A stretch of 64,000 nucleotides of DNA from Polaribacter sp. (GCF_039939415.1 NZ_JBDVJE010000071.1:6182-70181), one strand, 5' to 3'; counted from the stretch's first letter, positions 30,110-47,817 are shown. Notes: generated by a model not told the origin, from the sequence alone. Program-made: numbers and translations.

Positions 30110-30125
30110 TACGTATTAATACTTA
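30110..30125. promoter_or_regulatory. 7-2-7 operator upstream of nrtA
   Basis: TACGTAT-TA-ATACTTA; minus-strand TATATTTG promoter at 30134-30141. Confidence 0.7.
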
Positions 30126-30319
30126 TTTTTTGACAAATATATACCTAGATTTAATTTTAACTTATGATATTAACCATAAACAAACCTCTTTTTAAAACAT
30201 ATTAAAAACTACTAAAAAACATATTTTAAATATAAAAAACTAAAATACAGGTAGTTGAAAAATATAAAAAACAATTATATTTTCTACGTACTTATAGATT
30301 ATAAGTATTTTTCTACGTA

Positions 30320-30357
30320 AAAAAGACCTTTCAAATTCACTTTTGAAAGGTCTTTTT
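30320..30357 (-). terminator. Terminator of heme cassette
   Basis: AAAAAGACCTTTCAAA...TTTGAAAGGTCTTTTT. Confidence 0.85.
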
Positions 30358-30410
30358 ATAAAATTAAATTCTGATTTTCTCTTAAATCAAAAAATATAAA
30401 ATTACACTAA

Positions 30411-31118
30411 TTATGGATTTACAGTCTTTAACCATTCTTCTAGAGATAGTGCAGTATATTTTTTATCTGTTCCAAAAGGATCTTTTCCTCCTTTAAAATA
30501 TTCTTTTATATTTTTTAGAGAAATTGTGTCTGCTAATTTTTCTGGTACCTTATACTTATGATTTCCATGAAAATCGTGACATTGTATACAAGTAGACCAT
30601 TTTTCATTCAAAATTAAATCTTTATGAGAAATATCTAAAGGGTCATTCTCAATCTCTAGCGTTTGATGACAGTTCATACAGTAATTAACCTTATCAAGAG
30701 ATACTCTTTCTTTTTTATGTTCTGTATGACATGTAATACAGGTTGTAGCATTTATTTGTTCAATTGCTTCTTTAAACCTTGGCTCTGAAAACCTATATAC
30801 TGGATGTCTATCATTAGGTCTGTCATGGCATTGTAAACAATTATCTAGGGTAACATCTTTCGTTCCAAAATCTACATTTTTGTCTCTAGCTCCAATAGTA
30901 TAAGAAATATTAGACTGTATTTGTTGCACAAGATTTCCATTAGCATCTGCATGACAAGCAAAACATTTTAAATCTTTATGACCAGTATTCATTGGGCCAA
31001 TGGACAGATATTCTTCTGATGTATCTAGTGTTAAAACATAAATTAAAGGGATTGCTAATATTAAACCAATAATGCATCCAAAAAATTGCCTTTTACGAAG
31101 TGGACTTATTTTTAACAT
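30411..31118 (-). CDS. Membrane-anchored pentaheme cytochrome c
   Basis: N-terminal TM; five CxxCH (CFACH, CLQCH, CITCH, CMNCH, CIQCH); GPMNTGH. Confidence 0.88.
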   Translation of the reverse strand: MLKISPLRKRQFFGCIIGLILAIPLIYVLTLDTSEEYLSIGPMNTGHKDLKCFACHADANGNLVQQIQSNISYTIGARDKNVDFGTKDVTLDNCLQCHDRPNDRHPVYRFSEPRFKEAIEQINATTCITCHTEHKKERVSLDKVNYCMNCHQTLEIENDPLDISHKDLILNEKWSTCIQCHDFHGNHKYKVPEKLADTISLKNIKEYFKGGKDPFGTDKKYTALSLEEWLKTVNP

Positions 31119-31130
31119 ATAAATAATGAG

Positions 31131-32159
31131 TTAGATTTCTATAACTATCTTTTCACTTGTTGGATAACTGATACATGTAAGAACGCTTCCACTTTCTTGT
31201 TCATTTTCTGAAAGAATATGACCTTCTGTCATTTTTACCTCACCTTCTATACATTTAGCTTTACAAGTAGAACACATTCCAGACCTGCAAGAATAAGGTA
31301 AAGATATATTATGAGCCATTGCTTGTTGTAATATAGATTTATCACCTTTAAACTTTAAAGTATGCTCTTTTCCTTCAAATTTTAAAGTAACATCACTTAC
31401 AAAGTTTTTACCAGTTACTTTTACTTTTGGCATTTTAAATACCTCTAATTTAATTTGTTCTCTAGAAATATTATTTTCACTTAAAATTTCTTTAACTTTT
31501 TCCATATAACCAAAAGGTCCACAAATCCTATACACGTGATTAGTGTAGGTTAATTTATGTTTTAAAAAACACCTATCTATAAGTTCTTTTGTTGCTAATC
31601 CTGAATGATAATTTTTTTCTTCTTTTTTATTATTTGCAATAATATGTTCCACAAAAAAATTATTTGAATATTCTTTTTCTAAGTTTTTTATTTCATCATG
31701 AAAAATTATTGACGCTATGCTTTGGTTTGCGTAAATAAGTAAAATTTTAGAGTCTTTCTCTTCACTAAGAACAGATTTTATAATTGAAAACATGGGTGTT
31801 ATACCACTACCTCCAGCAAATAAAACATATTGTTTCTTTTCTTTTTTATCTAAAGAAACAAAGAAAGAACCTGCAGCTGGATCCACTGTTAAAGAATCTC
31901 CAACTTTTAAAGAATCACATAAATAATTAGAAACTAAACCATTTTCAACACGTTTAACAGTAATTTTTAAATCCTTGTCTGTATGAGGATTACTACTAAA
32001 AGAATAAGCTCTTTTATGATCTTCTTCATTTATTACTGCTTTAATTGTTAGAAACTGCCCTGGTTTGTATTTTATTTTTTTAAAAAAATTTCCGTTTTTT
32101 AAATGAATGCTTATGGCATCATTTGTTTCTTTAACTATATTTTTAACTAATAATTTCAC
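31131..32159 (-). CDS. FAD/NAD(P) reductase with C-terminal [2Fe-2S] ferredoxin (PaaE-like)
   Basis: RAYSFSS, GGSGITP, ICGP, CRSGMCSTC...C. Confidence 0.92.
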   Translation of the reverse strand: MKLLVKNIVKETNDAISIHLKNGNFFKKIKYKPGQFLTIKAVINEEDHKRAYSFSSNPHTDKDLKITVKRVENGLVSNYLCDSLKVGDSLTVDPAAGSFFVSLDKKEKKQYVLFAGGSGITPMFSIIKSVLSEEKDSKILLIYANQSIASIIFHDEIKNLEKEYSNNFFVEHIIANNKKEEKNYHSGLATKELIDRCFLKHKLTYTNHVYRICGPFGYMEKVKEILSENNISREQIKLEVFKMPKVKVTGKNFVSDVTLKFEGKEHTLKFKGDKSILQQAMAHNISLPYSCRSGMCSTCKAKCIEGEVKMTEGHILSENEQESGSVLTCISYPTSEKIVIEI

Positions 32160-32167
32160 TGCTTTCT

Positions 32168-32650
32168 TTATTTATAATAAAACACCATACTTACATGAAA
32201 CACTAACAGAAATGTAATTATTAATGATAATGCTACATGTGCTATCATCCATCCTTTAAACAAAATATCACTATTGTTTTTAAGAACATCTAAATTTAGA
32301 TACCCTAAAAGGGTATTAAATAAAAACACATATGACATCAATAACAAATAACCATACCCTAATTGTGTGCTATGTATATAGAAAAACAAAGGACTAACAG
32401 CTCCTAACCATTTATGAAGGTTTTGTATTGTTATATTATATTTTCTCCAGTTTTTTATTACTCTCGTAAAAGTGAGTAACCATTGGAACAAAATAAATGT
32501 GGCTAATAATACTCCTGACCATCTCTTATAAATTTCTTGTTGTTGCAGATGAGATAACCAACTCCAATCTAGTTTTAAGAAAAATTGCAAGAAATAGACT
32601 GTTAGTAATAGTAATCCTAATAAAGTAGATTTATTAGATTTAAATACCAT
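32168..32650 (-). CDS. 4-TM protein, predicted di-heme b (ferric-reductase-like)
   Basis: Two TM helices each with His pairs 14 apart: HKWLGAVSPLFFYIH and HVALSLIITFLLVFH. Confidence 0.65.
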   Translation of the reverse strand: MVFKSNKSTLLGLLLLTVYFLQFFLKLDWSWLSHLQQQEIYKRWSGVLLATFILFQWLLTFTRVIKNWRKYNITIQNLHKWLGAVSPLFFYIHSTQLGYGYLLLMSYVFLFNTLLGYLNLDVLKNNSDILFKGWMIAHVALSLIITFLLVFHVSMVFYYK

Positions 32651-32680
32651 AAATTTTTATACTTAAAAAGATAAATTATT

Positions 32681-33496
32681 TTATTTTTTTGCCATCAATA
32701 CCTTCATAGTAGTATAGGAAGATAATTTTTTCACACTATCTAAAAATACTTCTGGTGTTGGTAAGTAATTACCTTCTGCAGGCCATTTTTCTCCAATTTG
32801 TGGCTTTCCACTTTCTTTAAAATCATCAATTTCATCCAAATATTCTTTATAAATGTCTAAAGTACCTTCTGCATATGAATTTAATAAAGCAACCGTTTCT
32901 TTAAAACTTAAAGAATCTTTAGGATACTGCCAAGTTGTAGCTCCCATAACATCTCCCAACTTCCAATCTGATTTTGTAGTTTGTGGATGTTCATTATGAC
33001 AAGAAACACATGCTCCTGCACTTGCTAAATCAACAAACATTGCTGTGTGTAATTTTTGCTCTTCATCATAAAAAAACTGAGGCTTTTTATCTTTTTTTAT
33101 TTCCTCAAATAACTCTGCTTGTTTACCCTGAAATTTATTTGCTGCATTTACAGGAAAATCAGAACCAAGATATAACCCTAATGGAACTGGACTTTTTCTA
33201 ATACTAGATGCTACACCTCTTAAAAATAGAGCAGGAAGAGGACCCGCTTCTACATCGTCTTTTCTCCAATCTTCATCAAATTTCATTCCTTGAGCTTTCC
33301 CTTTACCAACAATTGCTTTGGTATATAATGTTCTAGTTACATCATTTTCTTTTGATACCATTTCTAAAACTTCTGCTACTGAAAAAGTGTTTTCAGATGC
33401 AGATCCTTTTGATTTTTCTTCAGGAACTCCATCACAAGAAATAAAAAAAGTAAAACTTAATATTGCTAATATGTATAATTTATTTGTAGTTTTCAT
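32681..33496 (-). CDS. c-type heme lipoprotein, Tll0287/DUF3365-like
   Basis: Lipobox ISC, GPLPALF, single CVSCH, WKLGDVMGA. Confidence 0.75.
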   Translation of the reverse strand: MKTTNKLYILAILSFTFFISCDGVPEEKSKGSASENTFSVAEVLEMVSKENDVTRTLYTKAIVGKGKAQGMKFDEDWRKDDVEAGPLPALFLRGVASSIRKSPVPLGLYLGSDFPVNAANKFQGKQAELFEEIKKDKKPQFFYDEEQKLHTAMFVDLASAGACVSCHNEHPQTTKSDWKLGDVMGATTWQYPKDSLSFKETVALLNSYAEGTLDIYKEYLDEIDDFKESGKPQIGEKWPAEGNYLPTPEVFLDSVKKLSSYTTMKVLMAKK

Positions 33497-33515
33497 AATG
33501 AATATTTTATGTTAT

Positions 33516-33929
33516 TTAATAAGATGCTCCTATCATCACACTAGACATTGTTTGGTATACACCTGCCCATGCATCTTTAACTTCAGGAGTAAAATCACCC
33601 CCTAAACCTGCTTCTAAAGTTGCTAGTAACGCAGCTCCAACTGTGCTATAATGAGATTCTTTAACATTATAACCCACATGTTTTTTTCCTAAACCTTCTA
33701 ATACAGGTATTAAAGCATCTAAATCACTTAAACCAGCAACAGCAGCTCCTAGCATCGTCATTAGTTTATTACCTTGTGTTTTCATTGCTTCTTCACCACT
33801 AGGAAATAAGGGTTTAAGTTCTGGGTCTAATTCAAATAATTTATTATAAAATATTGTTGCTGCAGTATCAGCTATGGGTCTTACTTTTTTAAATGATTCT
33901 TGTACAAGAGTAATTGTTTTTGCTTCCAT
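33516..33929 (-). CDS. Single-domain globin (flavohemoglobin/Vitreoscilla Hb-like)
   Basis: B10 Tyr (IFY), CD1 Phe (PLF), E7 Gln (TQG), F8 His (KKHV), WAGVY. Confidence 0.93.
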   Translation of the reverse strand: MEAKTITLVQESFKKVRPIADTAATIFYNKLFELDPELKPLFPSGEEAMKTQGNKLMTMLGAAVAGLSDLDALIPVLEGLGKKHVGYNVKESHYSTVGAALLATLEAGLGGDFTPEVKDAWAGVYQTMSSVMIGASY

Positions 33930-33962
33930 TATTATTTAATTTTGAGTTTCACTTCTATTAAG

Positions 33963-33978
33963 TAAGTATTAATACTTA
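33963..33978. promoter_or_regulatory. Perfect 7-2-7 operator upstream of globin
   Basis: TAAGTATTAATACTTA; minus-strand TATTTTTG at 33985-33992. Confidence 0.75.
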
Positions 33979-34088
33979 TTTAACAAAAATAAAATACTTA
34001 GAATTAAATAAGTATGTAAAAACACACCTTAAAAAAGGTTTTTACAACATATTAAAAACTATTAAATAGCAGGAAATTGAAAAAAGCA

Positions 34089-34838
34089 CTAACTATCTAA
34101 AAAGTAGTTATGTTCACTTATTTCTTTTTTAAGTAATTGTATATTATTTATACCAATTTTTTTTCCTTGAGAAATAATTAATCCTTCTTTTTTTAATGTA
34201 GAAAATATTCTGATAACTTGTTCTTCTGTAGTACCTGCATAGTCTGCATATTCTTTTCTACTTAATGGTAAGTTTAAGAAACCTCGTAAATCTCCAAATT
34301 TTCTATGAATGTACAATAAGGTATCAATTACTCTTTCACGAACTGTCATTTGAGAAATAGACTTTACTTTATTTTCACTTCTGTTAAGTTCGTTTGCATA
34401 AAACAACATCATTTCATAAGAAAACTTAGGGTTTTCTAACAATACTTTTTGTAGATGTTCTTTTGAAAAATAATATAATTCTGTGTCTTGTAAAGCAATT
34501 GCACCAATAGAATAATATTCTTGAGTTCCAAAACCTCGATGTCCAATAATTTCACAATCTTTTGCAAAACGAACTATTTGTTCTCGCCCATTTATACCAG
34601 TTCTAAAAACTTTTACAGTACCTTTTTTAATAAAAAACAAACCATTTACAGGAGCTCCTTCAATAATAAATTGTTGTCCTTTTTTGCATTTTAAAACTGT
34701 ATTTTTTGAAACCGATTCTAACAATAATTGATTACTATACCTATGTATCATACATTGGTTTTTCTTACATACTTCACACCCTAAACCTTTACTATTAGGG
34801 GTTTCTTGAGGTATTTTATGTGAATGAAATATTGCCAC
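34089..34838 (-). CDS. Crp/Fnr family regulator with N-terminal Cys cluster
   Basis: CEVCKKNQC, cNMP-binding barrel, HTH LSRKEYADYAGTTEEQVIR. Confidence 0.92.
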   Translation of the reverse strand: MAIFHSHKIPQETPNSKGLGCEVCKKNQCMIHRYSNQLLLESVSKNTVLKCKKGQQFIIEGAPVNGLFFIKKGTVKVFRTGINGREQIVRFAKDCEIIGHRGFGTQEYYSIGAIALQDTELYYFSKEHLQKVLLENPKFSYEMMLFYANELNRSENKVKSISQMTVRERVIDTLLYIHRKFGDLRGFLNLPLSRKEYADYAGTTEEQVIRIFSTLKKEGLIISQGKKIGINNIQLLKKEISEHNYFLDS

Positions 34839-34839
34839 T

Positions 34840-36279
34840 TTAAAGTTCTTTTTGTAATACTACTTTCTCAAAACTAGTTTTTGGAGCCTCACAAAGCGAA
34901 CACACGTAATTCTCTGGTAATTCATTAAAAATGGTTTCTGGTGCAATGCCTTGAGTAATATCTCCAAAAGCTTCATCGTAAATTGTTAAACAATCTTTAC
35001 ATTGATACACTTCTAATTCTGTGGTTTCTTTATTTACAAAAGCTTCTTTTTCCGCTTCTTTTTCACTCCCTAATTGATCAAAATATAATTGACTTAACTC
35101 CATTAACAATCCTGGTAATTCTACTTTATCTACGTCTTGAACGTGCATAATGTATTTTCTTGTATTTGGATCAAAATCTTTTGCATACAATAAATTATAA
35201 GTGTCTCTAGTTTGAAAATTACCAATCTTTTCTGGTTGTTTATTTTTTTCTACAACTATTGATGTAAAATAATGAGCAGACTTACTGTAGTTTGTAATTC
35301 CGAATGTTAAACCATAGGTACTAATATCATTTTGATCGAAGTTAGAAACCAAATATTTCTTTAAATTTAAAGCGTCTTTATTTGCCACAGGAATATGCCA
35401 GTTTAACTCTAACATAGAATGACGAACGTTAATACCTCTTTTACCTAAAAATTTTTCCCAAACCAATTTAGACTCTTTTGGAATTCCTTTTACAACAAAA
35501 GATTTCCAAGGAGTAATAGATATTTTACCAATCTTATTTTCAGAACACAATTCGCACATTTCTTTTAAGAAAGAAATATCGTATTTATTGTTTCTCCAAT
35601 ACAAACCTAACCAGTATTTATCTATTCCTATTTTGTTCATACCTTCAAAATATGGAAAAGGATAAAAAGGTACATCTAAAGGCTTGTCTACAGTTCTATT
35701 ATTGGTATCAATTGCATCATTTACCAAATCAAAAATCATTTCTACAGTTTCTGGCTCCTCTTGCAGTATGTTTTCTATTGCTGTTTCTACCTTTCCTAAA
35801 TCCCAACTATAAATTAAAGCAGGATACATTTGAGTTTTTCTCCATTCTGGAAGTCTTACATACAAATACCAATAATCTTCATGCTCTGAAGCAATAAAGT
35901 TTATATTACCAGTAAATAGAGGTACCAAACGTTGTTTGGGATCTATTAGGTTTATTTTTAATTTCGATTTTTGACGAAATTGTTCTAACAAATACAAGTA
36001 TCTATCTCCTGTTAACCAAGAAGTACTTGGAAAAATATCTGCACAAACATAAGAGGAAACTATGTTCTCTACACCTATTTCATCTGCTTCTACAATTTTT
36101 AATTTATCGAACTTTGCAAGATCTTCTTTTTTTGCTTTTTCTGATAATAAAATATCTTGTCTAGAGCCAAAAGAGATGGTTTTTAAACCTAAACTTTCTA
36201 CAGATTCACAAATATAATTTAGCTCTCCTGGAGATAAAACTCCGCCTTTTACAATCAATCTATTTAGTTGCTTACTCAT
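34840..36279 (-). CDS. Nitrite/sulfite-reductase ferredoxin-like domains fused to C-terminal rubredoxin
   Basis: GGVLSPGEL..FGSRQDI N-terminus; YQCKDCLTIYD...CSLCEAPK. Confidence 0.8.
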   Translation of the reverse strand: MSKQLNRLIVKGGVLSPGELNYICESVESLGLKTISFGSRQDILLSEKAKKEDLAKFDKLKIVEADEIGVENIVSSYVCADIFPSTSWLTGDRYLYLLEQFRQKSKLKINLIDPKQRLVPLFTGNINFIASEHEDYWYLYVRLPEWRKTQMYPALIYSWDLGKVETAIENILQEEPETVEMIFDLVNDAIDTNNRTVDKPLDVPFYPFPYFEGMNKIGIDKYWLGLYWRNNKYDISFLKEMCELCSENKIGKISITPWKSFVVKGIPKESKLVWEKFLGKRGINVRHSMLELNWHIPVANKDALNLKKYLVSNFDQNDISTYGLTFGITNYSKSAHYFTSIVVEKNKQPEKIGNFQTRDTYNLLYAKDFDPNTRKYIMHVQDVDKVELPGLLMELSQLYFDQLGSEKEAEKEAFVNKETTELEVYQCKDCLTIYDEAFGDITQGIAPETIFNELPENYVCSLCEAPKTSFEKVVLQKEL

Positions 36280-39200
36280 ACTCCTACTTTTGCGTTATTC
36301 AATATTTCTCTAACTTCAGTTTTACAACTTCCACAACCTAGACCTGCACCCGTTTTATTACATAATTCTGTAAAATTTGTACAACCTTTAGCAATTTCTT
36401 CTTCAATATTTCCAGACCCAACCTGACTACATGAACAAACTAATTCTCCTAACATTGGCGTGTCATTTGAAGCACCTCTTAACAAAGTATCACGCTTATC
36501 AGACATTTCAATTTTACTCTCAATTAAAGTTTTAAATTCTGCAAACTCGTTTTTATCGCCCACTAAAACTGCTCCAATTAACAAATCATCTTTAACAATA
36601 CACTTCTTGTAATATCCTTTAGAAATATCTGTAAATATTACTTCTTCATAACTTGGATCGTTTTCTGGAACAGAAATTTCTCCAATACTACATAGGTTTA
36701 AATCGTTAAATTTTAAAATATTCATTAACACAGAACCTTTATATGCTTCACTTATGTCTCCAGCAATAAAGTTGGCTAAAATACCTGCTTGTTCTTCTGC
36801 TGCAGATGTAATACCAAATAATTTATTTTCGAATTCTGCTATTTCACCAATGGCAAAAATATCTGGATGAGAAGATTGTAAATGTTGATTCACCTTAACT
36901 CCACGTCCGCAATTAATTCCGTTATTTTTAGCAATTTCTATATTGGGTCTTGTGCCAATTGCATACACAATTGCGTTTGCTGTAATGTATTTTCCTGATT
37001 TTAGGTTGATGGTTAATTCACCTGTATCTTCATCATCAAAAACAGTACTTACTTCATTATCAAAATAAATTTGAATACCTCTTTCTTGTACATCTTTAGA
37101 TAATAATTTACTAGAAATGGAATCTAACTGACGTTCCATTAAACGAGAAGCCCTTTGTATAATTGTAATTTTTACATTTTTATGCTTCATTGCTGCTGCT
37201 AATTCAAGCCCTAATAAACCACCACCAACGATTACAACATGTTGTTCTTCTGGAGGCAAACCTGTATTATCTAAATAACTTTTAAAACGATCTGCATCTA
37301 TTTTATTACGCATTGTAAAACGCCCAGGTAAATTTATTTGCACATCTTTAGGGATAAAAGGTCTACTTCCTGTTGCTAAAATTAACTTATCAAAAGTATG
37401 TATTTTACCATTAGAATCTGTAACTGTTTTATTATCCTTATCAATATTATTAATAATTTTTTCTGGATGAATTTTAATATCTAAATTGCTTAATTCAGCA
37501 TTTTTTATTTTTAATAATTGTTCCCAAGTTAATTCTTCTGTAATATATTCTGGCAACAAAACTCTGTTGTAAAACAAGTTTGTTTCTTTAGAAAATACAT
37601 GAATTTCATCTACTTGATTATAATCTCTATAATTTTGTAAAAAACGAAAAGCTGCAGCACCTGCACCTGCAATTATAATTTTTTCTTTCGGTTTTTTATA
37701 TTTAACCACAGAAACTGCTGTAAATTTAAAATCTGGTTCTTTAGAAACAGGATCTATATGTGTATTTGTTAAATTATTTGCTCTATTTAAGTTACTTTTT
37801 AAAACTTTACCCCAATGCATTGGTAAAAAAACAACACCTTCTTTAATGGCATCTGTTACTTTTGCACGAACTCTTACAACTCCGTTTTTACTTTTAATTT
37901 CTGTAATATCTCCATCTTTAATTCCTTTTAGAAAAGCATCAATAGGATTAATTTCTAATACAGGTTTAGGGTAATGTGTTTTTAACCTTGCAACTTTACC
38001 GGTTTTAGTCATGGTGTGCCATTGATCTCTAATACGACCTGTAGTTAAAATTAACGGAAATTCATCATTTGTTTTTACAGAAGTATTTTCTATAGTTGAT
38101 GGCGCATTAAATATTGCTTTTTGAGATGGTGTATAGAATTTTTTATCCTGAAATAAACGTGGTGTTCCTTTACTTCGATATTCATTAACTGGCCATTGAA
38201 AAGTACCTTCGTTTTTTAAACGATCATAATTTAAGAAAGAAACATCAATATTTGTGCCTTTGGTCATTGAAGCGTATTCATCATAAATTTCTTCTGCACC
38301 GTTAAAATCAAAGCCTCTAAAACCCATTCTTTGTGCAAAATCGCAGAAAATTTCTACATCTGGTCTTGCTTCTCCTGGAGCTTCAATTTCTTTGGGTAAA
38401 TAAGATATTCTACGCTCAGAATTTGTCATAGTACCTTCTTTTTCTAACCAAGCTGCTGCAGGTAACACTAAATCTGCATACTGCAAAGTATCTGCTTTAT
38501 GAGAAATTTCTTGTACAACAACAAACTTAGATTTTGCCATTGCTTTTTCTATTTGATGTGAATTTGGCATACTTACCAACGGATTTGTACTAGCAATCCA
38601 AACTGCTTTTACTTTTCCGCTTTCTAAGCCATCAAACAATTCTGTTGCTGTTAATCCAGGGTTTGGAGATATTTTATCTACTCCCCAAAATTGCGCAACC
38701 TCTCTTCTATGTTCTTCGTTTCCTAAATCTTTATGTACAGCTAGTAAATTTGCCATTCCACCAACTTCACGACCACCCATTGCATTTGGTTGCCCTGTTA
38801 ATGAAAACGGACCAGAACCTGGTTTACCAACTTGACCTGTAATTAAAGACAAATTTAAAAGCGATGTGTTTTTATCTGTACCAATAACACTTTGATTTAA
38901 ACCCATTGCCCACATACTTATAAAGCCTTTAGATAAACCAATTATTTCTGCGGCTTTTTGTATATCATCTTCTGGAACTCCACAAATTTTAGAAGCTTGT
39001 TTTAAAGTAGTATTAAAAATTACTTTCTTATAATCATCAAAACCTTGAGTATGTTTTTTAATGAAATCTTCATCAATTAATCCGCTTTTATACAATCTTC
39101 TACCAATTGCATTGTACAAAACAACATCTGTACCTGGTTTTAATTGTAAATGCAAATCAGCAAAATTTGCAGAATCTGTTTTACGAGGATCAATTACTAT

Positions 39201-39797
39201 AATTTTTACATTCGGATTTTCTTCTTTGCGTTTTTCTATCCTTCTAAATAAAATAGGATGACACCAAGCAGGATTTGCTCCTGTAATTAAAAAACAGTCT
39301 GCTAAATCTATATCTTCATAAGAAATTGGCACACTATCTTCCCCAAATGTTTTTTTGTAACCAACCACGGCAGAACTCATACATAAACGTGAGTTGGTAT
39401 CTATATTATTGGTTCCAATAAATCCTTTTGTTAATTTATTTGCGATATAATATTCTTCTGTTAAACTCTGACCTGATACGTAAAATGCAACTGAATCTGG
39501 ACCATGTTTTTTTATAATTGATTTAAATACATTGGCAGCTCTATCTAAAGCTGTATCCCAAGAAACTCTTTCTCTAGGATGAGAACGAGACCATCGCATT
39601 TCTGGATATAAAATTCTGTCTGAAGTATCATTAGCTACATAATGCAAGTTCATTCCTTTAGAACATAAAAGCCCTTTATTTACAGGATGTTCTTTATCTC
39701 CTTCAACAAAAACTTTGTTGTTAATGTCTTTTTTTACGATAATTCCACAACCAACTCCACAATAAGAGCAAGTAGTTTTAACTTCATTTTTAATCAT
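36276..39797 (-). CDS. Assimilatory nitrate reductase: Mo-bisMGD domain fused to NADH oxidoreductase and BFD [2Fe-2S]
   Basis: TCSYCGVGCG, RLCMSSA, TGQPNAMGGRE, TTGRIRDQWHT, GAGAA, GGGLLGLE, CSC...GCGSC. Confidence 0.93.
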   Translation of the reverse strand: MIKNEVKTTCSYCGVGCGIIVKKDINNKVFVEGDKEHPVNKGLLCSKGMNLHYVANDTSDRILYPEMRWSRSHPRERVSWDTALDRAANVFKSIIKKHGPDSVAFYVSGQSLTEEYYIANKLTKGFIGTNNIDTNSRLCMSSAVVGYKKTFGEDSVPISYEDIDLADCFLITGANPAWCHPILFRRIEKRKEENPNVKIIVIDPRKTDSANFADLHLQLKPGTDVVLYNAIGRRLYKSGLIDEDFIKKHTQGFDDYKKVIFNTTLKQASKICGVPEDDIQKAAEIIGLSKGFISMWAMGLNQSVIGTDKNTSLLNLSLITGQVGKPGSGPFSLTGQPNAMGGREVGGMANLLAVHKDLGNEEHRREVAQFWGVDKISPNPGLTATELFDGLESGKVKAVWIASTNPLVSMPNSHQIEKAMAKSKFVVVQEISHKADTLQYADLVLPAAAWLEKEGTMTNSERRISYLPKEIEAPGEARPDVEIFCDFAQRMGFRGFDFNGAEEIYDEYASMTKGTNIDVSFLNYDRLKNEGTFQWPVNEYRSKGTPRLFQDKKFYTPSQKAIFNAPSTIENTSVKTNDEFPLILTTGRIRDQWHTMTKTGKVARLKTHYPKPVLEINPIDAFLKGIKDGDITEIKSKNGVVRVRAKVTDAIKEGVVFLPMHWGKVLKSNLNRANNLTNTHIDPVSKEPDFKFTAVSVVKYKKPKEKIIIAGAGAAAFRFLQNYRDYNQVDEIHVFSKETNLFYNRVLLPEYITEELTWEQLLKIKNAELSNLDIKIHPEKIINNIDKDNKTVTDSNGKIHTFDKLILATGSRPFIPKDVQINLPGRFTMRNKIDADRFKSYLDNTGLPPEEQHVVIVGGGLLGLELAAAMKHKNVKITIIQRASRLMERQLDSISSKLLSKDVQERGIQIYFDNEVSTVFDDEDTGELTINLKSGKYITANAIVYAIGTRPNIEIAKNNGINCGRGVKVNQHLQSSHPDIFAIGEIAEFENKLFGITSAAEEQAGILANFIAGDISEAYKGSVLMNILKFNDLNLCSIGEISVPENDPSYEEVIFTDISKGYYKKCIVKDDLLIGAVLVGDKNEFAEFKTLIESKIEMSDKRDTLLRGASNDTPMLGELVCSCSQVGSGNIEEEIAKGCTNFTELCNKTGAGLGCGSCKTEVREILNNAKVGV

Positions 39798-39923
39798 TTA
39801 GACTACCATTTTATACTAAATACGACATTAATTTTTTACTATCCTAAGTTTCATTTTATTATTTTGAATAACTTAAAAAAACATACTATGTATTTTTAAA
39901 TCGACAAAAAAATATTTAGAAAA

Positions 39924-41354
39924 TTAACTTTTTACGTTTACAGGAATTAATTCTGGAATCAAATCTTCTAAATCTTTTGAAGCTTCGTCTTGTTCTTCTT
40001 TTGCAGAAAATTTAATAGATAATGCTATAATTCCTGTTGCAACAACTACAAAACCTATTAATAAATATCCACTTGAAACTGCACTAGAAGATGCCGCAGA
40101 TTGCGCTGCTTTTACCACCTCATCTCCTAAACCTTCACTAGATAAAATAGCTGCTTTTTCTGCTACTGCAGATTTAGATTTTAATAACATGGCTGCTAAA
40201 AAAGCCCCAACATTACCACCAGCACCTACAATTCCAGAAACTGAACCAATTGCTTTTTTATTAATAAATGGCACTACAGAAAATGTTGCCCCTTCTGCCA
40301 TTTGAACACTTAAACTAAATGAAATTAATAATACAATACCTAAAATTAAGCTTGTTGCCCCAGAAAAAGAAATTAGAATAATTCCTTGTAAAGTTAAAAT
40401 GAAAGATAAGAACAAAACACGCCCTCTTAACCCTTTTAATTTTCCAAATTTATCACCAAAGAAACCTCCTAAAGTTCTTGCAAAAATATTCATTAAAGCA
40501 AAAGACAAAACAATGTTACCTGCAGTAACTCTTTCTAATTGAAACGTATTTTGAAGATAATCATCCATCGTTCCATAAACCGTTAATTCAATTCCAAAAC
40601 TTGCTGCATACACTACAAAAAGAATCCAAACTCTATAGTCTTTTAATACCTCTAAAAAACCAACTTGATCTTTCTTAGTAACCACCATTTCACCTGCAGC
40701 CTTTAATTCACTAAAATTTCCTTTTGGAGTATCTTTTGTAAAAAAGAAATACACAATACCCATTAAAAAACAAACCATACCTGCAATTACCATAGAATAC
40801 CTCCAAGCCTCTGCATCTGCAACACCAAAAGCAACAACTGCTCCTGCAATTAAAGGCATTCCTAACCTGTTTGCTCCTCCACCTAAATTACCCCAACCTG
40901 CAGAAGTTGCATTAGCAGTTCCTACAATATTAGGCGCAAACATTAAAGAAGTATGTACTTGAGTAATAACAAATGAAGCTCCAATAAAACCAATAAATAA
41001 TCTACAAACTAAAAATTGAGTTGGTGTCTGTACTAACCCACATAATATTACAGGAATTGCCCCTAACATTAATAACCATGTATAACATAATCTTGGTCCG
41101 TATTTATCACATAATTTACCTATAAGTAAACGTGCAAAAACGGTTCCAGAAACCGCTAATATAATTGAGTTCCATTTTTGGTCTGGTGTTAAACCTAAAT
41201 CTTTAACAACATCTGGCATAAAAGGCACAATACCAAACCATGCAAAAAAACATAAAAAGAATGAAATTGACGTAATCCAAAATGTACGTGTTGATACGTT
41301 TTTAAAATCTAATAAACTTAATTTTGTTGATTTTTCTTGAGCTAAATTGATCAT
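39924..41354 (-). CDS. narK: MFS nitrate/nitrite transporter (NarK/NasA)
   Basis: CFFAWF, GTANATSAGWGNLGGG, ARTLGG, GAGGNVG. Confidence 0.92.
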   Translation of the reverse strand: MINLAQEKSTKLSLLDFKNVSTRTFWITSISFFLCFFAWFGIVPFMPDVVKDLGLTPDQKWNSIILAVSGTVFARLLIGKLCDKYGPRLCYTWLLMLGAIPVILCGLVQTPTQFLVCRLFIGFIGASFVITQVHTSLMFAPNIVGTANATSAGWGNLGGGANRLGMPLIAGAVVAFGVADAEAWRYSMVIAGMVCFLMGIVYFFFTKDTPKGNFSELKAAGEMVVTKKDQVGFLEVLKDYRVWILFVVYAASFGIELTVYGTMDDYLQNTFQLERVTAGNIVLSFALMNIFARTLGGFFGDKFGKLKGLRGRVLFLSFILTLQGIILISFSGATSLILGIVLLISFSLSVQMAEGATFSVVPFINKKAIGSVSGIVGAGGNVGAFLAAMLLKSKSAVAEKAAILSSEGLGDEVVKAAQSAASSSAVSSGYLLIGFVVVATGIIALSIKFSAKEEQDEASKDLEDLIPELIPVNVKS

Positions 41355-41379
41355 GATACCTATTTTTATGATGTAAAAA

Positions 41380-41395
41380 TAAGTATAAATACTTA
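41380..41395. promoter_or_regulatory. 7-2-7 operator upstream of narK
   Basis: TAAGTAT-AA-ATACTTA; extra ATACGTAT at 41412-41419. Confidence 0.75.
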
Positions 41396-41525
41396 GTTTT
41401 AATGTTAAAAAATACGTATTTTTATAATTATTAAAAGATTAATAATTAGGTAATAGTGATTTTAAGAATATGCTAAAATTAAGCTATAAAATTACGAGTA
41501 ATAAAAACAAAAAATTATAAAACAT

Positions 41526-42185
41526 CTATATTAAATGATATTCTTTTGCTTTAGTGGTAAGTTCTTGAAGGTTTTTAGCCTCTAACTTTTTCATTAAATT
41601 AAAACGATGAACCTCTGCAGTACGCTTACTAATAGATAATTCTTCTGCAATATCTTTATTGTTCTTCAATTCTAAAACTAAACTAAGTATTTGTTTTTCT
41701 CTCTTTGTTAATTTAAAAGGAAGCTCTTTAACTTTTGTTTTAGTTTTTTGAAATTTAGTAGCATTTCCGTTTACAAAATTATTCATAATAATAGAAGAAA
41801 CATCTCCTGTAAAATACTTACCTCCTGCAGCAACCTTAGTTACCGCTTTTAAAAACTCTTCTTTACTTGCTCCTTTTAATAAATAACCATCTGCACCTGC
41901 TTGTATAGATTTTACAACATATTCTTCAGAATCATGCATAGAAAGCATTAATGTTTTTATATCAATTTTTTGTTTTTTAATTTCTGCTACAGCTTCAATT
42001 CCATTCATTTCTGGCATACGAATATCAATAATTAAAACATGAGGCTTGTTTTTAGCTATAACCTCTAAAGCTTCTTTTCCGTTAGAAGCTTCATCAATAA
42101 CCATAATTCCTGTTTGATCTTCTAAAAGCGCTTTAATTCCATCTCTTACTAAGATGTGGTCATCTGCCAAAACTACATTAATCAT
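41526..42185 (-). CDS. NarL/LuxR family response regulator
   Basis: ADDH, DIRMPEMNG, LTKREKQIL, TAEVHRFNLMKKL. Confidence 0.93.
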   Translation of the reverse strand: MINVVLADDHILVRDGIKALLEDQTGIMVIDEASNGKEALEVIAKNKPHVLIIDIRMPEMNGIEAVAEIKKQKIDIKTLMLSMHDSEEYVVKSIQAGADGYLLKGASKEEFLKAVTKVAAGGKYFTGDVSSIIMNNFVNGNATKFQKTKTKVKELPFKLTKREKQILSLVLELKNNKDIAEELSISKRTAEVHRFNLMKKLEAKNLQELTTKAKEYHLI

Positions 42186-42243
42186 AACTGTATATATTTT
42201 ATACTTACAAAAATAAGAATTTTAAGTAAAACTACGTATTTTT

Positions 42244-44055
42244 TTAAATCGGGATATTTAAAGTAACTCTAGTTCCTTTTCCTAATTCAGAATTTAAGAA
42301 CAGTCTACCATCAATATATTTAATACGTTCTTTCATAAAAGTCATTCCCATTCCACCATCTCCATTTTTAACTTTCTTTACTTTTGATGGCTCAAAACCT
42401 TTTCCATCATCATCAATATTAATGCTTAAAATATTTTTACTATGAGAAAGTGACACTAAAATATGTGAGGAATTTGCATATTTTATGGCATTATTAATTG
42501 CTTCTTGGGTAATTCTATAAATATTTATTTCTACTAAAGAGTCTAATCGTTGATTAAAATCTGTTTTATTGTACAAAACAATTTCCTTACCCGTTAACCT
42601 ACCTAATTCTTGAGTTAATTTATTAATTGCTGGCACAATACCATGATCTGATAATTCTGGTGGAGTTAAGTTAAAAGTTGCAGTTCTAACACCTTTAATA
42701 ATGTTTGCAGTTAACTCTTTTAAATGCTCTATTTTAGAATTTGTTTTTTCAATATCTTTGGTATTGATACTTTCTAAATTATACTTTAAACCTGTTAACA
42801 TTTGCCCAATTCCATCATGAACATCTTTGGCAATTCTGTTTTGTTCTTTTTCTTGATTTTCAATAATCTTACTAGAGATTATTTTTTGCTGGCTCATTTT
42901 CTCTTCAAAACTAGCCTTTGTTAACCTTTCTATTTCTAATTGAGCCGCTTTTCTATCTGTGATTTCTGATCCTATAATTAATAACTCTAACTTGTCTTCT
43001 GTTGGTCTGTAAGGAATAATAGACATTTCTAACCAAATATCTTTACCTGCTTTTGTGGTTGCTTTAACCTCTCCTTGCCAACCTGTTTTTTTATTTTTAT
43101 CAATTAAAAGTTCTAAAGCAATTTGTTCGTTATTATTACTTGACAAAACATTCCAAAACAAAACTTCTTTTGTAAATTTAGACAACTTAAATAAGCGAGA
43201 AAACTTGTTTCCCATATGAATTAAATTTCCTTTAGGAGAAATTCTTGCAAACAATAAAGTTTCATCCATGGCATGACTTAAGGTTTTTAATTCTTTCATG
43301 GATTTTTCTTTAGCGATACTTAACAAATCTGCATCAAAAGCCATTTTTTTAGCTTTTTTTTCTGCTATCAATAATTCTGTAAGTGTTGCTTTTACAGATT
43401 TTGCTGTAGGCCAAAAAATAAATAGTAGTTCTACTAACAAAATTAGTAAAGTAAAGCCCATTAAAAAGAACTCTAACTTACGCAACCAAACAACTTTTTC
43501 ATCTGCCTCTAAATCATATTGATTTACAATTTCATCCATTATTAATAAAAATGAGCCTTCGTTGTTTGTAACTTCATTAATTTCTGGCGCTAAGTTTTCT
43601 ATAGGAATTAAAGCATTTTTATCTAATTTTTTTACAATTGACTTTGAGGCTTTTTGGATGGTTTTAAAAACCGGATTTATAACTTTAAATTTATTCTTAA
43701 CTTCTGTACTGTTTTGCTTTGGAAGCCCTAGACTGTCATTACCTTTTTGAAGTGAATTATGAGATAACTCCCATAAATAAAGTGTTTTTTTTATCTTATT
43801 TTTAAATAAAAGTCTTGCTTTTTCATTAGAGGAAACAGAAAGAGAAACAATTTCTTTTGTTAATTTCTGACTCAACATTCTTTGCCTACCTGCAATATTA
43901 ATTACAGTAGAATCGCTTTTTTGAGTTTCTAGATGATTTCTAACTAAAAATTGACTGATAATTACAGAGAGTGCAATTGTACTTAAAGCTATTACATATA
44001 AACGACTTAATTTATTAAACGTTCTTTGGTCTAATGAATTAGCATTTTTTGTCAT
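42244..44055 (-). CDS. NarX-like sensor histidine kinase (nitrate-sensing domain, PAS, HisKA_3)
   Basis: INIAGRQRMLSQK P-box-like, RIAKDVHDGIGQ, QEAINNAIKY, DDGKGF, GMGM. Confidence 0.9.
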   Translation of the reverse strand: MTKNANSLDQRTFNKLSRLYVIALSTIALSVIISQFLVRNHLETQKSDSTVINIAGRQRMLSQKLTKEIVSLSVSSNEKARLLFKNKIKKTLYLWELSHNSLQKGNDSLGLPKQNSTEVKNKFKVINPVFKTIQKASKSIVKKLDKNALIPIENLAPEINEVTNNEGSFLLIMDEIVNQYDLEADEKVVWLRKLEFFLMGFTLLILLVELLFIFWPTAKSVKATLTELLIAEKKAKKMAFDADLLSIAKEKSMKELKTLSHAMDETLLFARISPKGNLIHMGNKFSRLFKLSKFTKEVLFWNVLSSNNNEQIALELLIDKNKKTGWQGEVKATTKAGKDIWLEMSIIPYRPTEDKLELLIIGSEITDRKAAQLEIERLTKASFEEKMSQQKIISSKIIENQEKEQNRIAKDVHDGIGQMLTGLKYNLESINTKDIEKTNSKIEHLKELTANIIKGVRTATFNLTPPELSDHGIVPAINKLTQELGRLTGKEIVLYNKTDFNQRLDSLVEINIYRITQEAINNAIKYANSSHILVSLSHSKNILSINIDDDGKGFEPSKVKKVKNGDGGMGMTFMKERIKYIDGRLFLNSELGKGTRVTLNIPI

Positions 44056-44069
44056 TTTAAATTACATTT

Positions 44070-44654
44070 TTAAGAAATTGCTTTTTTTACTAAAGCTAAA
44101 CTTTTATCAGAAAAAGGAAGTGTTAATGCAGCTTTATGACCTTTTTTAGACATTTTTATCCAGGTTTTTTTTAAAATATCAATTACCTTTTCATCTGTAT
44201 GTTTTGCGGCAAACTCTTCGAAATAGTAATCTAAAAAAACCAAGCAAATAGTATCTTCTAAAGCTTGTGCTTCTTCATTCTTTTTTAGTAGTTTTTTTAA
44301 TATAATTTTCTGAACTCTTTCTACAAATTGATTATCAAAACCTACTTGTTCTAAAATTTCTCCAGTAATTTTTGCGTGCATTTTTTTTAATTCTTCACGC
44401 CATTTTAAATACCCAACTCTATCCATTGGATATTCATTTCTTGCAATTTTCCAACGACAAATATGTTGTGCTCTTGCTGCAACTTGCAATGCTTTAGATG
44501 CATTTGGCTCAAATTGCAATAACTTTCTTGTCATTCTTTGAGAATACAGCAATTCTTTAGGGTATGCTATATCTGCTACTTGATATGTGGTTGTGTCTTC
44601 AGCATTTTTCTGATCAATAATTGCAATTGCAGTTTCAAATCTTGTTGGCTTCAT
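44070..44654 (-). CDS. DUF4202-like protein
   Basis: AARAQHICRW, GYLKWR, LEDTICLVFL; typical of nitrate clusters. Confidence 0.8.
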   Translation of the reverse strand: MKPTRFETAIAIIDQKNAEDTTTYQVADIAYPKELLYSQRMTRKLLQFEPNASKALQVAARAQHICRWKIARNEYPMDRVGYLKWREELKKMHAKITGEILEQVGFDNQFVERVQKIILKKLLKKNEEAQALEDTICLVFLDYYFEEFAAKHTDEKVIDILKKTWIKMSKKGHKAALTLPFSDKSLALVKKAIS

Positions 44655-44663
44655 TTCTTGGCT

Positions 44664-45041
44664 TTATTCTGAAAAGCCAATATACACATTTTCTCCTTCA
44701 ATTTTAACAGGATAGGTAGCAATTGGATCTAAATCTCCGTTTAAATTTTCTCCTGTTTCTAATGAAAACGTTTTTTTATGTAAGGGACATGCAACCATTG
44801 GAGTTCCATTATGATCACCAATCATACCTCTACTTAAAACCATTTCTTGTTTTTCTGGTGATAAATTTTGGCATGCATACCATTTGTTTAGTCTTTCAAA
44901 ATTAAATACAGCAATTTGCAAATCATTGTACTTAACACAAGCTCCACCATCTTTTGGAAAAGCATTAATTGAAGCAGCTTTAAACCAAATTTTTACATCC
45001 TCTAACTTCGTTGTTTTATATTTATTTAGAATTCCTTCCAT
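44664..45041 (-). CDS. nirD: Nitrite reductase small subunit (degenerate Rieske)
   Basis: VLSRGMIGD, CPLHKKTFSLETG; follows nirB. Confidence 0.92.
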   Translation of the reverse strand: MEGILNKYKTTKLEDVKIWFKAASINAFPKDGGACVKYNDLQIAVFNFERLNKWYACQNLSPEKQEMVLSRGMIGDHNGTPMVACPLHKKTFSLETGENLNGDLDPIATYPVKIEGENVYIGFSE

Positions 45042-45068
45042 TTTACTTTAATTTTTAAAACTTTTTAA

Positions 45069-47585
45069 TTATTTCCAAGGTTCTGGCATTTTTTGATCTC
45101 TTAAAGGAACAAAAACTAAGTTGTCATCTTCTTCTTCACTGTTTACAAAATGATTAAAACGTTTCATTGTTTCTGGATCATTAACTGCTTGGGTCCACTC
45201 ACATTCAAACTTATTTACTAAAGTTTGCATCTCTTTTTCTAAATCTTCAACTATACCTAATTTATCATCAATAATAACTTCTTTTAAATAATCTAAACCA
45301 CCTTCTAATCTATCTTGCCACGCAGCAGTACGTTGTAATGGTTTGGCTGTACGCATGTAAAACATTAAATAACGGTCTATGTATTTAATTACAGTTTTAT
45401 TATCTATCTGTTCTGCTAATAATTCTGCATGCCTTGGTGTTGCACCACCATTTCCACCAACATATAAATTCCAACCACCTTCTACAGCAATTAAACCAAA
45501 ATCTTTTCCGCGAGCTTCTGCACATTCTCTAATACAACCAGAAACTCCACCTTTAATTTTATGAGGTGCACGAATACCTCTATAACGATTCTCTAGTTCT
45601 ATACCAAAACTTACACTTTCATCCATTCCGTAACGACACCAAGTAGACCCCACACATGTTTTTACTGTTCTTAAAGATTTACCATAAGCATGTCCACTTT
45701 CGAAACCATGACTTATTAATTCTTTCCAAATTAAAGGTAGTTGATTTAATGTTGCACCAAATAAATCAATACGAACACCACCTGTTACTTTTGTATATAA
45801 ATCGTATTTCTTAGCAATTTGACCAAGAGCAATTAATTTATCTGGAGTAATTTCTCCTCCTGGAACACGAGGTACCACAGAATAAGTACCATTTCTTTGA
45901 ATGTTTGCTAAAAATCGATCGTTAGAATCTTGAATAGCATATTCTTTATTAGCAGTATCTGCATTGATACTTGCCATTAAAGAAGCTACCAAAGGCTTAC
46001 ATAGCTCGCAACCATGACCAACATTTCCATGATTGTCTAATACTTCATCAAAAGTAGTATATCCTTTTACTTGTATAATTTTATATAAATCTTGCCTGCT
46101 TAAATCAAAATGTTCACAAACTCCTTCTTTAACCTCTATACCTAAAGATTTAAGAGTTGCATTGGTTAAATCTGTTACCATAGGCTTACAACCACCACAA
46201 CCAGTTCCTGCTTTTGTACAGCTTACAACATCTGCAACATCTTTAGCTTTACCACTTTCAATTACTCCACAAATTTGGCCTTTGGTAACACTTTCGCAAG
46301 AACATATTTGCGCTTCATCTGGCAAATCCATTACATCTCCAAAAGAACCACCTCCATCACCTGCTGGTAAAATTAATTGTGCTGGATCTTCAGGAATTTT
46401 CATTCCGTTTAAATAAATTTGATGTAACATACTGTAATCTGAAGCATCACCTACTAAGATTCCTCCTAATAAAGATTTACCATCTAAACTTACATTAATT
46501 CTTTTATATAAATGTTGTGTTTTATTTTCAAATATGATAGAATGTCCTTTAGCAGCAGGCATAAAAGGCTCTCCAAAACTTGCTACATCTACACCAATTA
46601 ATTTTAATTTGGTAGACATATCAATATCTGCTGGCATTAAACTATCTATTTCACCTAAAATCTGGTTTACAGCAACACCTGCCATATCATAACCTGGAGC
46701 CACTAAACCGTAAATCATTTGATTATACAAAGCAACCTCACCAATTGCATAAATATTTTCATCTGAAGTTTGCATTTTATTGTTTACTACAATTCCACCA
46801 CGAGTTCCCATTTCTAACCCACAAGTTTTACCAAGCTCATCTCTTGGTCTAATTCCTGCAGAAACCACCAACATTTCTACACTTAAAACATCATCTTCTC
46901 CAAATTCCATACCGATAATATGGTCTTCTCCTAAAATTTGATTGGTTGCTTTACTTAAATGTATATTTAATCCTATAGATTCTAATTTTAACTGCAACAC
47001 CTTACTACTTCTTGCATCTAATTGTCTTGGCATTAGTTTAGGTGCAAACTCTACAATATGTGGCTCTAAACCCATATCCATAACAGCTTTACCAGCTTCT
47101 AAACCTAATAAACCACCACCTAAAACTGCTGCTTTAGCTTTTGGGTTAGCTTCTTTTAATTTAGCAGCGTATGCTAACATACCTTCTAAATCTTCAATTG
47201 TTCTATACACAAAAACACCTTCTTTCTCTACTCCTTTAATTGGTGGAACAAAAGCAGAAGAACCTGTTGCTAATACTAAATAATCATAATTAAAAGTTCT
47301 ATTTTTTGCAGTAATTATGGTTTTTGTTTCTTTTTGAATATCTGTAACTCTTTCGTCTACAACTAAGTCTATTCCGTTTTCTTTATACCATTCTGCAGGC
47401 GCCATTTCTAAAGCTTTCGCATCTTGATTTTCGAAAAATTCACTTAAATGAACTCTATCATAAGCAGGTCTTGGCTCTTCACCAAAAACAATAACTTTAA
47501 AATTTTCATTTCCTGATGCTGCTACAAATTTTTCACAAAATTTATAACCAACCATTCCATTACCAACAACAATAATTGTTTTCAT
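45069..47585 (-). CDS. nirB: NADH nitrite reductase large subunit
   Basis: GNGMVG, YDRVHLS, CSC..GCGGC, CEH..CELC, CVGSTWCR, GCIRECAE. Confidence 0.96.
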   Translation of the reverse strand: MKTIIVVGNGMVGYKFCEKFVAASGNENFKVIVFGEEPRPAYDRVHLSEFFENQDAKALEMAPAEWYKENGIDLVVDERVTDIQKETKTIITAKNRTFNYDYLVLATGSSAFVPPIKGVEKEGVFVYRTIEDLEGMLAYAAKLKEANPKAKAAVLGGGLLGLEAGKAVMDMGLEPHIVEFAPKLMPRQLDARSSKVLQLKLESIGLNIHLSKATNQILGEDHIIGMEFGEDDVLSVEMLVVSAGIRPRDELGKTCGLEMGTRGGIVVNNKMQTSDENIYAIGEVALYNQMIYGLVAPGYDMAGVAVNQILGEIDSLMPADIDMSTKLKLIGVDVASFGEPFMPAAKGHSIIFENKTQHLYKRINVSLDGKSLLGGILVGDASDYSMLHQIYLNGMKIPEDPAQLILPAGDGGGSFGDVMDLPDEAQICSCESVTKGQICGVIESGKAKDVADVVSCTKAGTGCGGCKPMVTDLTNATLKSLGIEVKEGVCEHFDLSRQDLYKIIQVKGYTTFDEVLDNHGNVGHGCELCKPLVASLMASINADTANKEYAIQDSNDRFLANIQRNGTYSVVPRVPGGEITPDKLIALGQIAKKYDLYTKVTGGVRIDLFGATLNQLPLIWKELISHGFESGHAYGKSLRTVKTCVGSTWCRYGMDESVSFGIELENRYRGIRAPHKIKGGVSGCIRECAEARGKDFGLIAVEGGWNLYVGGNGGATPRHAELLAEQIDNKTVIKYIDRYLMFYMRTAKPLQRTAAWQDRLEGGLDYLKEVIIDDKLGIVEDLEKEMQTLVNKFECEWTQAVNDPETMKRFNHFVNSEEEDDNLVFVPLRDQKMPEPWK

Positions 47586-47610
47586 AATTACGTATTTTAC
47601 ACAACAAAAC

Positions 47611-47626
47611 TACGTATTATTACTTA
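47611..47626. promoter_or_regulatory. 7-2-7 operator upstream of nirB
   Basis: TACGTAT-TA-TTACTTA overlapping minus-strand TAGTTTTG (47605-47612); extra half-site 47589-47595. Confidence 0.7.
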
Positions 47627-47817
47627 TTTTTTTAGTTTCAAGTCATTATTTTTTAATTAGAAAGTAAATTTTTATCAATTTGAAAAAATAAAACAATGAA
47701 AATGAATATTCTACAAAATAGGTTTCTTAGAAATATGAATTCTGTATTTGCATATTTAAGTTTTTTACTTAGAAGTTTTTAATATCTTTGGAATCTTCTT
47801 TTAATTTAAACTTAAAA

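Follow-up and report, generated by a model that had tools for sequence, protein, structure and literature searches.

Which protein reads the inverted repeat that recurs before the transcription units of a Polaribacter sp. nitrate-assimilation cluster, and what would it do there? The cluster occupies the minus strand of a 64,000-nucleotide (nt) stretch of DNA (GCF_039939415.1 NZ_JBDVJE010000071.1:6182-70181; the whole stretch is hereafter called the window) and holds all five copies of the repeat, located upstream of nrtA, a globin gene, narK, a response regulator gene and nirB. Judged from sequence comparisons, the palindrome is probably the operator of the cluster's own two-component system, composed of a NarX/McpN-type kinase and a NarL/FixJ-family regulator. 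A regulator dimer would occupy the palindrome with one helix-turn-helix per TAMGTA half-site and would control five units inside their core promoters: nirBD-DUF4202-kinase, the regulator gene itself (autoregulation), narK-nasA-rubredoxin protein-crp, the globin cassette and nrtABC. Isolated TACGTA hexamers would probably be bound by the regulator as well.

All five sites serve genes on the minus strand. They are situated at 30110-30125 (nrtA; plus strand TACGTATTAATACTTA, gene strand TAAGTATTAATACGTA), 33963-33978 (globin cassette; TAAGTATTAATACTTA, a perfect palindrome), 41380-41395 (narK; plus strand TAAGTATAAATACTTA, gene strand TAAGTATTTATACTTA), 42223-42238 (response regulator gene; plus strand TAAGTAAAACTACGTA, gene strand TACGTAGTTTTACTTA, a perfect 6-4-6 match) and 47611-47626 (nirB; plus strand TACGTATTATTACTTA, gene strand TAAGTAATAATACGTA, 25 nt before the nirB ATG). 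They are accompanied by an upstream TACGTA hexamer in the narK promoter (41413-41418, minus strand), a lone TACGTA hexamer within the short leader predicted for nirB (47589-47594, minus strand), where orthologues keep aaATACGTArttATG, extra half-sites upstream of the globin gene (33994-34015), and, some 200 nt before nrtA, a distal array of hexamers, TACGTA-N6-TACTTA-N7-TAAGTACGTA (30285-30319, minus strand). Sites comparable to this array are found 180-216 nt upstream of nrtA in the related loci L009, L030, L036 and L039. The five 16-mers and the extra half-sites thus occur where the original prediction, made from the window sequence, had placed them, and its central claim that a recurring inverted repeat marks these five promoters holds. 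Its 7-2-7 geometry holds in part: the 16-bp frame is that of the NarL/FixJ family, but the information profile and the weight matrix derived from orthologous sites define the conserved core as the 6-4-6 palindrome TAMGTA-N4-TACKTA, with G4 and C13 invariant and positions 7 and 10 almost devoid of information.

In a genome of 3.19 Mb with 28.5% G+C, such repeats might have arisen by chance in AT-rich DNA, be left over from promoter duplication or form the stems of a leader RNA hairpin rather than serve as operators. Sites with up to three mismatches do occur at chance level in the window (27 against 24.7 expected), and the signal therefore lies only in near-perfect sites. At no more than one mismatch to TAMGTATNNATACKTA, four sites were found in the window against 0.16 expected, a count reached in none of 100 shuffles. 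The whole genome contains three perfect matches to the pattern, every one inside the cluster, and the genome-wide scan that had been suggested as a check placed the five cluster sites at ranks 1-5 of the weight matrix (scores 19.0-21.2), followed by a match within a coding region at 18.1. No comparable score was obtained before other genes, and the regulon is therefore local to the cluster. The motif is likewise far from equally common in AT-rich intergenic DNA: TACGTA reaches a density of 7.7/kb in the five upstream regions and 0.17/kb in intergenic-like DNA of the genome, an approximately 46-fold difference. Genome-wide, the hexamer is under-represented (0.119/kb against about 0.33/kb estimated from base composition), which makes its concentration in the cluster more conspicuous.

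To assess conservation, 80 kinase-anchored loci (from Polaribacter, Algibacter, Mariniflexile, Tamlana, Winogradskyella and others) and 31 more distant ones were compared. The 80 kinase-anchored loci keep the same gene order across many genera, and over the more than 100 related loci, from about 75 genera, the palindrome is kept while its flanks diverge, also in distant genomes with a kinase identity of 41-73%. Counted over distinct promoters, the palindrome is present in 98 of 106 for nirB, 63 of 64 for narK and 70 of 107 for the regulator gene. Its distance to the start codon in the 80 loci is 23-25 nt for nirB, 25-27 nt for narK (or for nasA if narK is missing), about 21 nt for nrtA, 32-33 nt for the globin gene and 37-42 nt for the regulator gene. 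In a distant subgroup (L094-L100 and L101-L109; kinase 44-48% identical) the regulator gene is not beside the kinase gene and lies a few kb away, past the nrt operon; nrtA is divergent from nirB, and the palindromes are kept.

The half-site variants at positions 3 and 14 (AT 28, CT 16, AG 16, CG 9) are statistically independent between the arms, which fits protein-contacted half-sites and speaks against an RNA stem. An RNA hairpin or attenuator was therefore rejected for want of covariation; the nirB and narK sites, moreover, lie upstream of the predicted transcription start and hence outside the transcript. Promoter duplication does account for one pair of sites. The nrtA and globin upstream regions (30126-30250 and 33979-34075) are paralogues with 71% identity over about 150 nt and have TAGTTTTTAATATGTTKTAAAAA in common about 90 nt upstream of the operator; the globin cassette therefore gained its operator with a second copy of the nrtA promoter, on its insertion between crp and nrtA. 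The site thus does tie the globin cassette to the nitrate regulon, as originally proposed, and does so because the globin and nrtA promoters are paralogous copies. Among the upstream regions of nirB, narK and the regulator gene, by contrast, similarity is limited to the -7 box, the palindrome and the hexamers, and taken together these results bring the non-operator explanation close to refutation.

The proposed binder is encoded within the cluster, at 41526-42185 on the minus strand, and consists of a receiver and a GerE/LuxR-type helix-turn-helix domain (Pfam Response_reg 1.2e-29, GerE 2.9e-17). The best solved match of the full-length protein is NarL (1a04, E 5.3e-31), and the DNA-binding domain alone matches EsrB/SsrB (7vim) at 1.3e-14, FixJ (1x3u) at 3.6e-10 and NarL at 7e-5. 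Its recognition helix, S(K)RTxExHRFNLMKK, has no second copy in the genome and is invariant among orthologues from 100% down to 42% overall identity; the pattern (R/K)T.E.HR.N.M.K is common to the regulator, EsrB/SsrB and Sinorhizobium meliloti FixJ. For FixJ, systematic evolution of ligands by exponential enrichment defined the class GTAMGTAG, and the fixK site is TAAGTAATTTCCCTTA (PMC4999443). A FixJ-like helix paired with the FixJ half-site thus provides evidence for the regulator that is independent of gene co-occurrence.

Co-occurrence was assessed in 401 complete Flavobacteriaceae genomes. The regulator (single copy) and nirB are each present in 113 genomes and occur together in 112; the two exceptions are G320, with a truncated regulator copy, and G347, a 360-contig assembly. 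The sensor kinase is also found in 113 genomes, 110 of them within the nirB set, and two genomes lacking a detectable kinase keep the palindromes and have a regulator orthologue elsewhere in the genome. Two related genomes, G216 and G320 (L120/L133), have seemingly truncated regulators: in G216 the match covers residues 1-155 only, the helix-turn-helix is missing and the nitrate cluster remains, and in G320 it covers residues 73-219 only, with cluster and palindromes remaining. A site in the regulator's own promoter is a signature of autoregulation. With helix, half-site, co-occurrence and this site taken together, we regard the NarL/FixJ-family regulator as the likely binder.

The partner kinase (42244-44055, minus strand) is NarX-like and is encoded by the last gene of the nirB-nirD-DUF4202 operon. 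It carries a PilJ-type periplasmic domain with a P-box, followed by PAS (Pfam PAS_9), HisKA_3 (1.8e-9) and HATPase_c (9.2e-15) domains; a Pfam scan of the kinase found neither HAMP nor GAF. The P-box INIAGRQRMLSQK (VINIAGRQRMLSQKL) contains the nitrate-binding G-x-x-R, as defined in PMC8199190, and the segment aligns to the ligand-binding domain of the nitrate chemoreceptor McpN (6gcv; PMC6381276). The P-box suggests nitrate as the signal, and the domain order places the kinase in the Bacteroidetes class of nitrate sensors with PAS and lacking HAMP and GAF-like domains (PMC8199190).

Flavobacterial promoters carry a sigma-A box TAnnTTTG at -12 to -5, with a median leader of 24 nt (PMC9723704). 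Exactly one such box was found in each upstream region, except that narK has TATTTTTA instead, and three arrangements of box and site recur, each bound to a gene class. At nirB the box TAGTTTTG (47605-47612, minus strand) shares its TA with the last TA of the palindrome, which thereby spans about -26 to -11; this fused arrangement is found in 84 of the 98 site-carrying promoters. The -7-like box of narK (41374-41381, minus strand) is fused to its palindrome in the same way (site at -26 to -11), and fusion to TAnnTTT(G/A) is seen in 59 of 63 site-carrying promoters. For the regulator gene the box TATTTTTG (42208-42215, minus strand) lies 7 nt downstream of the palindrome, at about -35 to -20, and the box is 6-9 nt downstream of the site in 47 of 70. 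The third arrangement is reversed: the globin palindrome begins 5 nt downstream of its box, also TATTTTTG (33984-33991, minus strand), just past the predicted start, and the nrtA palindrome begins 8 nt downstream of TATATTTG (30134-30141, minus strand), at about +5 to +20, the box being 5-9 nt upstream of the site in 4 of 4 globin promoters and 7-9 nt upstream in 20 of 25 nrtA promoters. The box positions confirm that sites overlap or follow the -7 element. Single TACGTA hexamers are conserved right after the box (narK and regulator gene), within the leader of nirB and, upstream of palindromes, at a distance of 20-35 nt.

Further conserved elements stand about 45-60 nt upstream of the nirB and narK palindromes. 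The nirB upstream region carries ATTTGAGAAAT-N4-AATAAT at 47666-47682, which in several genomes takes the form of a direct repeat AATTGA-N4-AATTGA; the narK upstream region carries AATTATyAATCT at 41426-41447, forming in the window the 8-6-8 inverted repeat AATTATTA-N6-TAATAATT. These elements may be the site of a second regulator, such as a nitrogen-status sensor. A Crp-type box near -40 of the nrtA promoters was also considered and dropped, as it amounts to the only loosely conserved tCATgAgTT.

Several points weigh against assigning the palindrome to the two-component regulator. The coupling of regulator and nirB is so tight that other cluster-linked factors would show the same pattern. The nrtA and globin sites are copies of each other and hence not independent observations. 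Start positions are predicted from -7 box matches alone, and the resulting site positions (-26 to -11, -35 to -20 and about +5 to +20) are typical of repressors, which is physiologically odd under canonical polarity, where nitrate activates the kinase and the phosphorylated regulator binds DNA. Finally, the cluster encodes a Crp/Fnr-family regulator (34089-34838, minus strand) that could in principle read xxGxx-N4-xxCxx, a pattern which the palindrome fits.

The palindrome would then be a 5-4-5 FNR-type site, AAGTA-N4-TACTT, responding to oxygen, nitric oxide or redox state through an Fe-S cluster. An FNR-like CxxCx4C motif stands at the N-terminus of the protein, which also retains both E and R from the E--SR recognition motif of FNR, the G-N8-C spacing of the palindrome equals that of the FNR box TTGAT-N4-ATCAA, and the orthologue is restricted to nirB-carrying genomes (72 of 72 among the 401), usually encoded directly upstream of nrtA or the globin gene. 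The same survey nevertheless found no orthologue (E <= 1e-50) in 41 of the 113 complete genomes with nirB, and all 21 Crp-less genomes inspected (L081-L096, L098, L115, L120, L121 and L123) still have palindromes with high scores upstream of nirB, narK, nrtA or the regulator gene. Gene adjacency was misleading as a means of separating the two candidates: in 15 of 16 seemingly Crp-less genomes the orthologue lies a few kb away, and the 401-genome survey was therefore needed. No site occupies the class II position near -41, isolated conserved TACGTA hexamers ill suit a strictly dimeric Crp-type site, and the half-site is that of FixJ; to our knowledge, no known Crp/Fnr box has it. Of the two candidate binders named originally, comparative genomics thus favours the response regulator and speaks against the Crp/Fnr protein, which we consider a very improbable reader of the palindrome and which would be an accessory, cluster-specific regulator.

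A third transcription factor encoded elsewhere, for example a nitrogen-status regulator, might occupy the palindrome, with the two-component regulator acting at other sites such as the upstream elements. The extra conserved elements at the nirB and narK promoters do imply that more than one factor acts there, and the repressor-like positions would suit a repressor bound when ammonium is replete. A global nitrogen regulator should, however, have sites elsewhere, and the matrix scan finds no comparable ones before other genes; the half-site, furthermore, matches the specificity expected of the regulator's FixJ-like helix, and a site is present in the regulator's own promoter. An unlinked factor on the palindrome therefore appears unlikely.

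If the two-component regulator is the binder, the sign of its action can be considered promoter by promoter. At nrtA and the globin cassette, where the site falls just past the predicted start, binding would probably repress. At nirB and narK/nasA, where site and -7 box are fused, activation and repression are about evenly balanced. Repression is favoured by the location of all sites within the polymerase footprint, by the identity of the palindrome's outer TA with T-12 A-11 of the box, which regulator and sigma factor would both need, and by single hexamers that overlie the predicted start. Activation is favoured by physiology, as under canonical polarity repression would stop assimilation with nitrate present, by the near-perfect co-occurrence of regulator and nirB, by the exact fused register held at three operons in about 75 genera, and by the lack of a clear -33 element upstream of the palindrome. 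A single regulator with both capacities would resemble NarL, a repressor of frdA when bound to a 7-2-7 site at -4/+6 and an activator when bound at about -40 to -49 (PMC4549865).

Because repressor-like positions are at odds with canonical polarity, either the geometry or the signal polarity must be non-canonical. As a working guess, dual control as in NarL would have nitrate switch on the permease and the reductases, raise the regulator and turn down the ATP-binding cassette transporter. Specifically, the regulator might activate nirB and narK/nasA from -26 to -11, sharing T-12 A-11 and replacing the -33 element beside sigma-A, and, bound at about +5 to +20, act as a repressor of nrtA and the globin cassette; we offer this version tentatively and hold it to be somewhat doubtful. 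If true, activation from a fused site would constitute a Bacteroidota-specific geometry in which a response-regulator dimer sits at the upstream edge of the -7 box. The alternative, also non-canonical, is a NarX-type system of inverted polarity, in which nitrate would relieve repression by the NarL/FixJ-family regulator.

How does the proposed circuit compare with characterized systems? Residues K188, V189 and K192 of NarL contact DNA; in the alignment to 1a04 the regulator has E, V and F at these positions. As in Escherichia coli NarX/NarQ-NarL/NarP, a P-box nitrate kinase is paired with a receiver-GerE regulator, and the operator shares with the enteric NarL site (TACYYMT, e.g. TACCCCTAAAGGGGTA) the 16-bp inverted repeat, an outer TA(C) and additional single half-sites. 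The half-site nevertheless differs from the enteric heptamer, as had been noted at the outset: position 4 is an invariant G, and the pyrimidines at heptamer positions 4 and 5 are missing. In contrast to NarX, the kinase is devoid of HAMP and GAF-like domains and carries PAS, a feature of the Bacteroidetes class (PMC8199190), and the targets are assimilatory and aerobic, unlike the respiratory targets of NarXL. The label of a NarL-like regulon suits the family geometry, whereas the half-site and the recognition helix are FixJ-like and the regulon is confined to one cluster.

The likeness to FixJ extends to the TAMGTA half-site, which shows A/C degeneracy and sits within a 16-bp frame in both systems (PMC4999443), to the helix (RTaEVHRfNlMkK here, RTvEVHRaNvMaK in FixJ) and to the rank of FixJ 1x3u as second-best solved match to the DNA-binding domain. 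In other respects the systems diverge: the partner of FixJ is FixL, an oxygen sensor with haem-PAS, where the regulator here has a periplasmic nitrate sensor; the targets here belong to nitrate assimilation; the operator, unlike the asymmetric fixK site, is a symmetric palindrome; and FixJ activates from sites at -69 to -31, compared with -35 to +20 here. The system thus appears FixJ-like at the level of DNA, yet is not a FixLJ system. Among solved structures, EsrB/SsrB (7vim, E 1.3e-14) matches the DNA-binding domain best; it shares the helix KT.E.HR.N.M.K, and binds palindromic heptamers 4 bp apart with no strict spacing to the start site (PMC2837388); its half-site, however, is ACmTTA in a 7-4-7 arrangement, its sites are degenerate compared with the near-perfect ones here, and its biological role is unrelated.

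Described relatives are the narHK/narRR pairs of Bacteroidetes, which Gushchin et al. 2021 (PMC8199190) catalogued in silico for Flavobacteriales and Cytophagales, beside nitrate/nitrite genes. They belong to the same kinase class with a conserved nitrate-binding motif; the account covers only proteins and neighbourhoods, no operator, target promoters or regulon being named in the passages searched, and term searches of the paper gave nothing on an assimilatory character of the cluster. A literature search for a regulator of flavobacterial nitrate assimilation or for this motif returned only that catalogue. Elsewhere in bacteria, according to the papers found, nitrate assimilation is controlled by NasR, NasST, NtcA/NtcB or GlnR/NnaR, and respiration by NarXL-type systems. 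The kinase-regulator gene pairs are already catalogued, and no account of the operator, or of how Flavobacteriia regulate nitrate assimilation, was found in these papers.

On computational evidence, a NarX-like sensor appears to be coupled to a FixJ-like DNA specificity and to act at five promoters through a 16-bp operator. Marine Flavobacteriaceae are major consumers of the organic matter of algal blooms, and the cluster, present in 113 of the 401 species sampled and in 75 of 245 genera, enables its carriers to compete for nitrate with phytoplankton. The palindrome offers a defined regulon and a sequence marker by which nitrate-responsive promoters could be recognized in metagenomes and metatranscriptomes, as well as a system in which to study transcription-factor action at the unusual -33/-7 promoters of Bacteroidota.

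Among lower-scoring matches outside the cluster, those inside coding regions were set aside. A site before the ribosomal L21 gene (C89:33455, score 13.6) was set aside as chance or unrelated, as were C64:84270 and C64:84538, at the 3' ends of two paralogous LuxR-type genes. This part of contig C64 (83650-84544) encodes a 208-aa receiver-GerE regulator and an adjacent 74-aa GerE-only paralogue, and both genes end in TACGTAGGT(T/C)TACGTA at the stop codon (matrix ranks 7 and 8 genome-wide). In the window, TACGTAAAGCCACTTA at 59268-59283 (score 13.8) lies in an operon leader, 27 nt before the first gene of pcfJ-rtcB-prfH, and was set aside as probably a chance match.

In cluster order, the minus-strand genes begin with nirB (45069-47585), followed by nirD, the DUF4202 gene and the kinase gene. 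The regulator gene comes next, then narK, a fused assimilatory nitrate reductase (nasA), a rubredoxin/NIR_SIR-like protein and the Crp/Fnr-family regulator. The five-gene cassette that follows encodes the globin, a Tll0287-like protein, an unknown 160-aa protein, an FNR-type reductase and a multihaem cytochrome c, and nrtA and nrtB stand at the end. The closest relative of the kinase, at 91%, is that of Polaribacter sp. Hel1_85. The DUF4202 gene (44070-44654) lies between nirD and the kinase gene in nearly all orthologous loci examined and is apparently a constant part of the nirBD-kinase operon.

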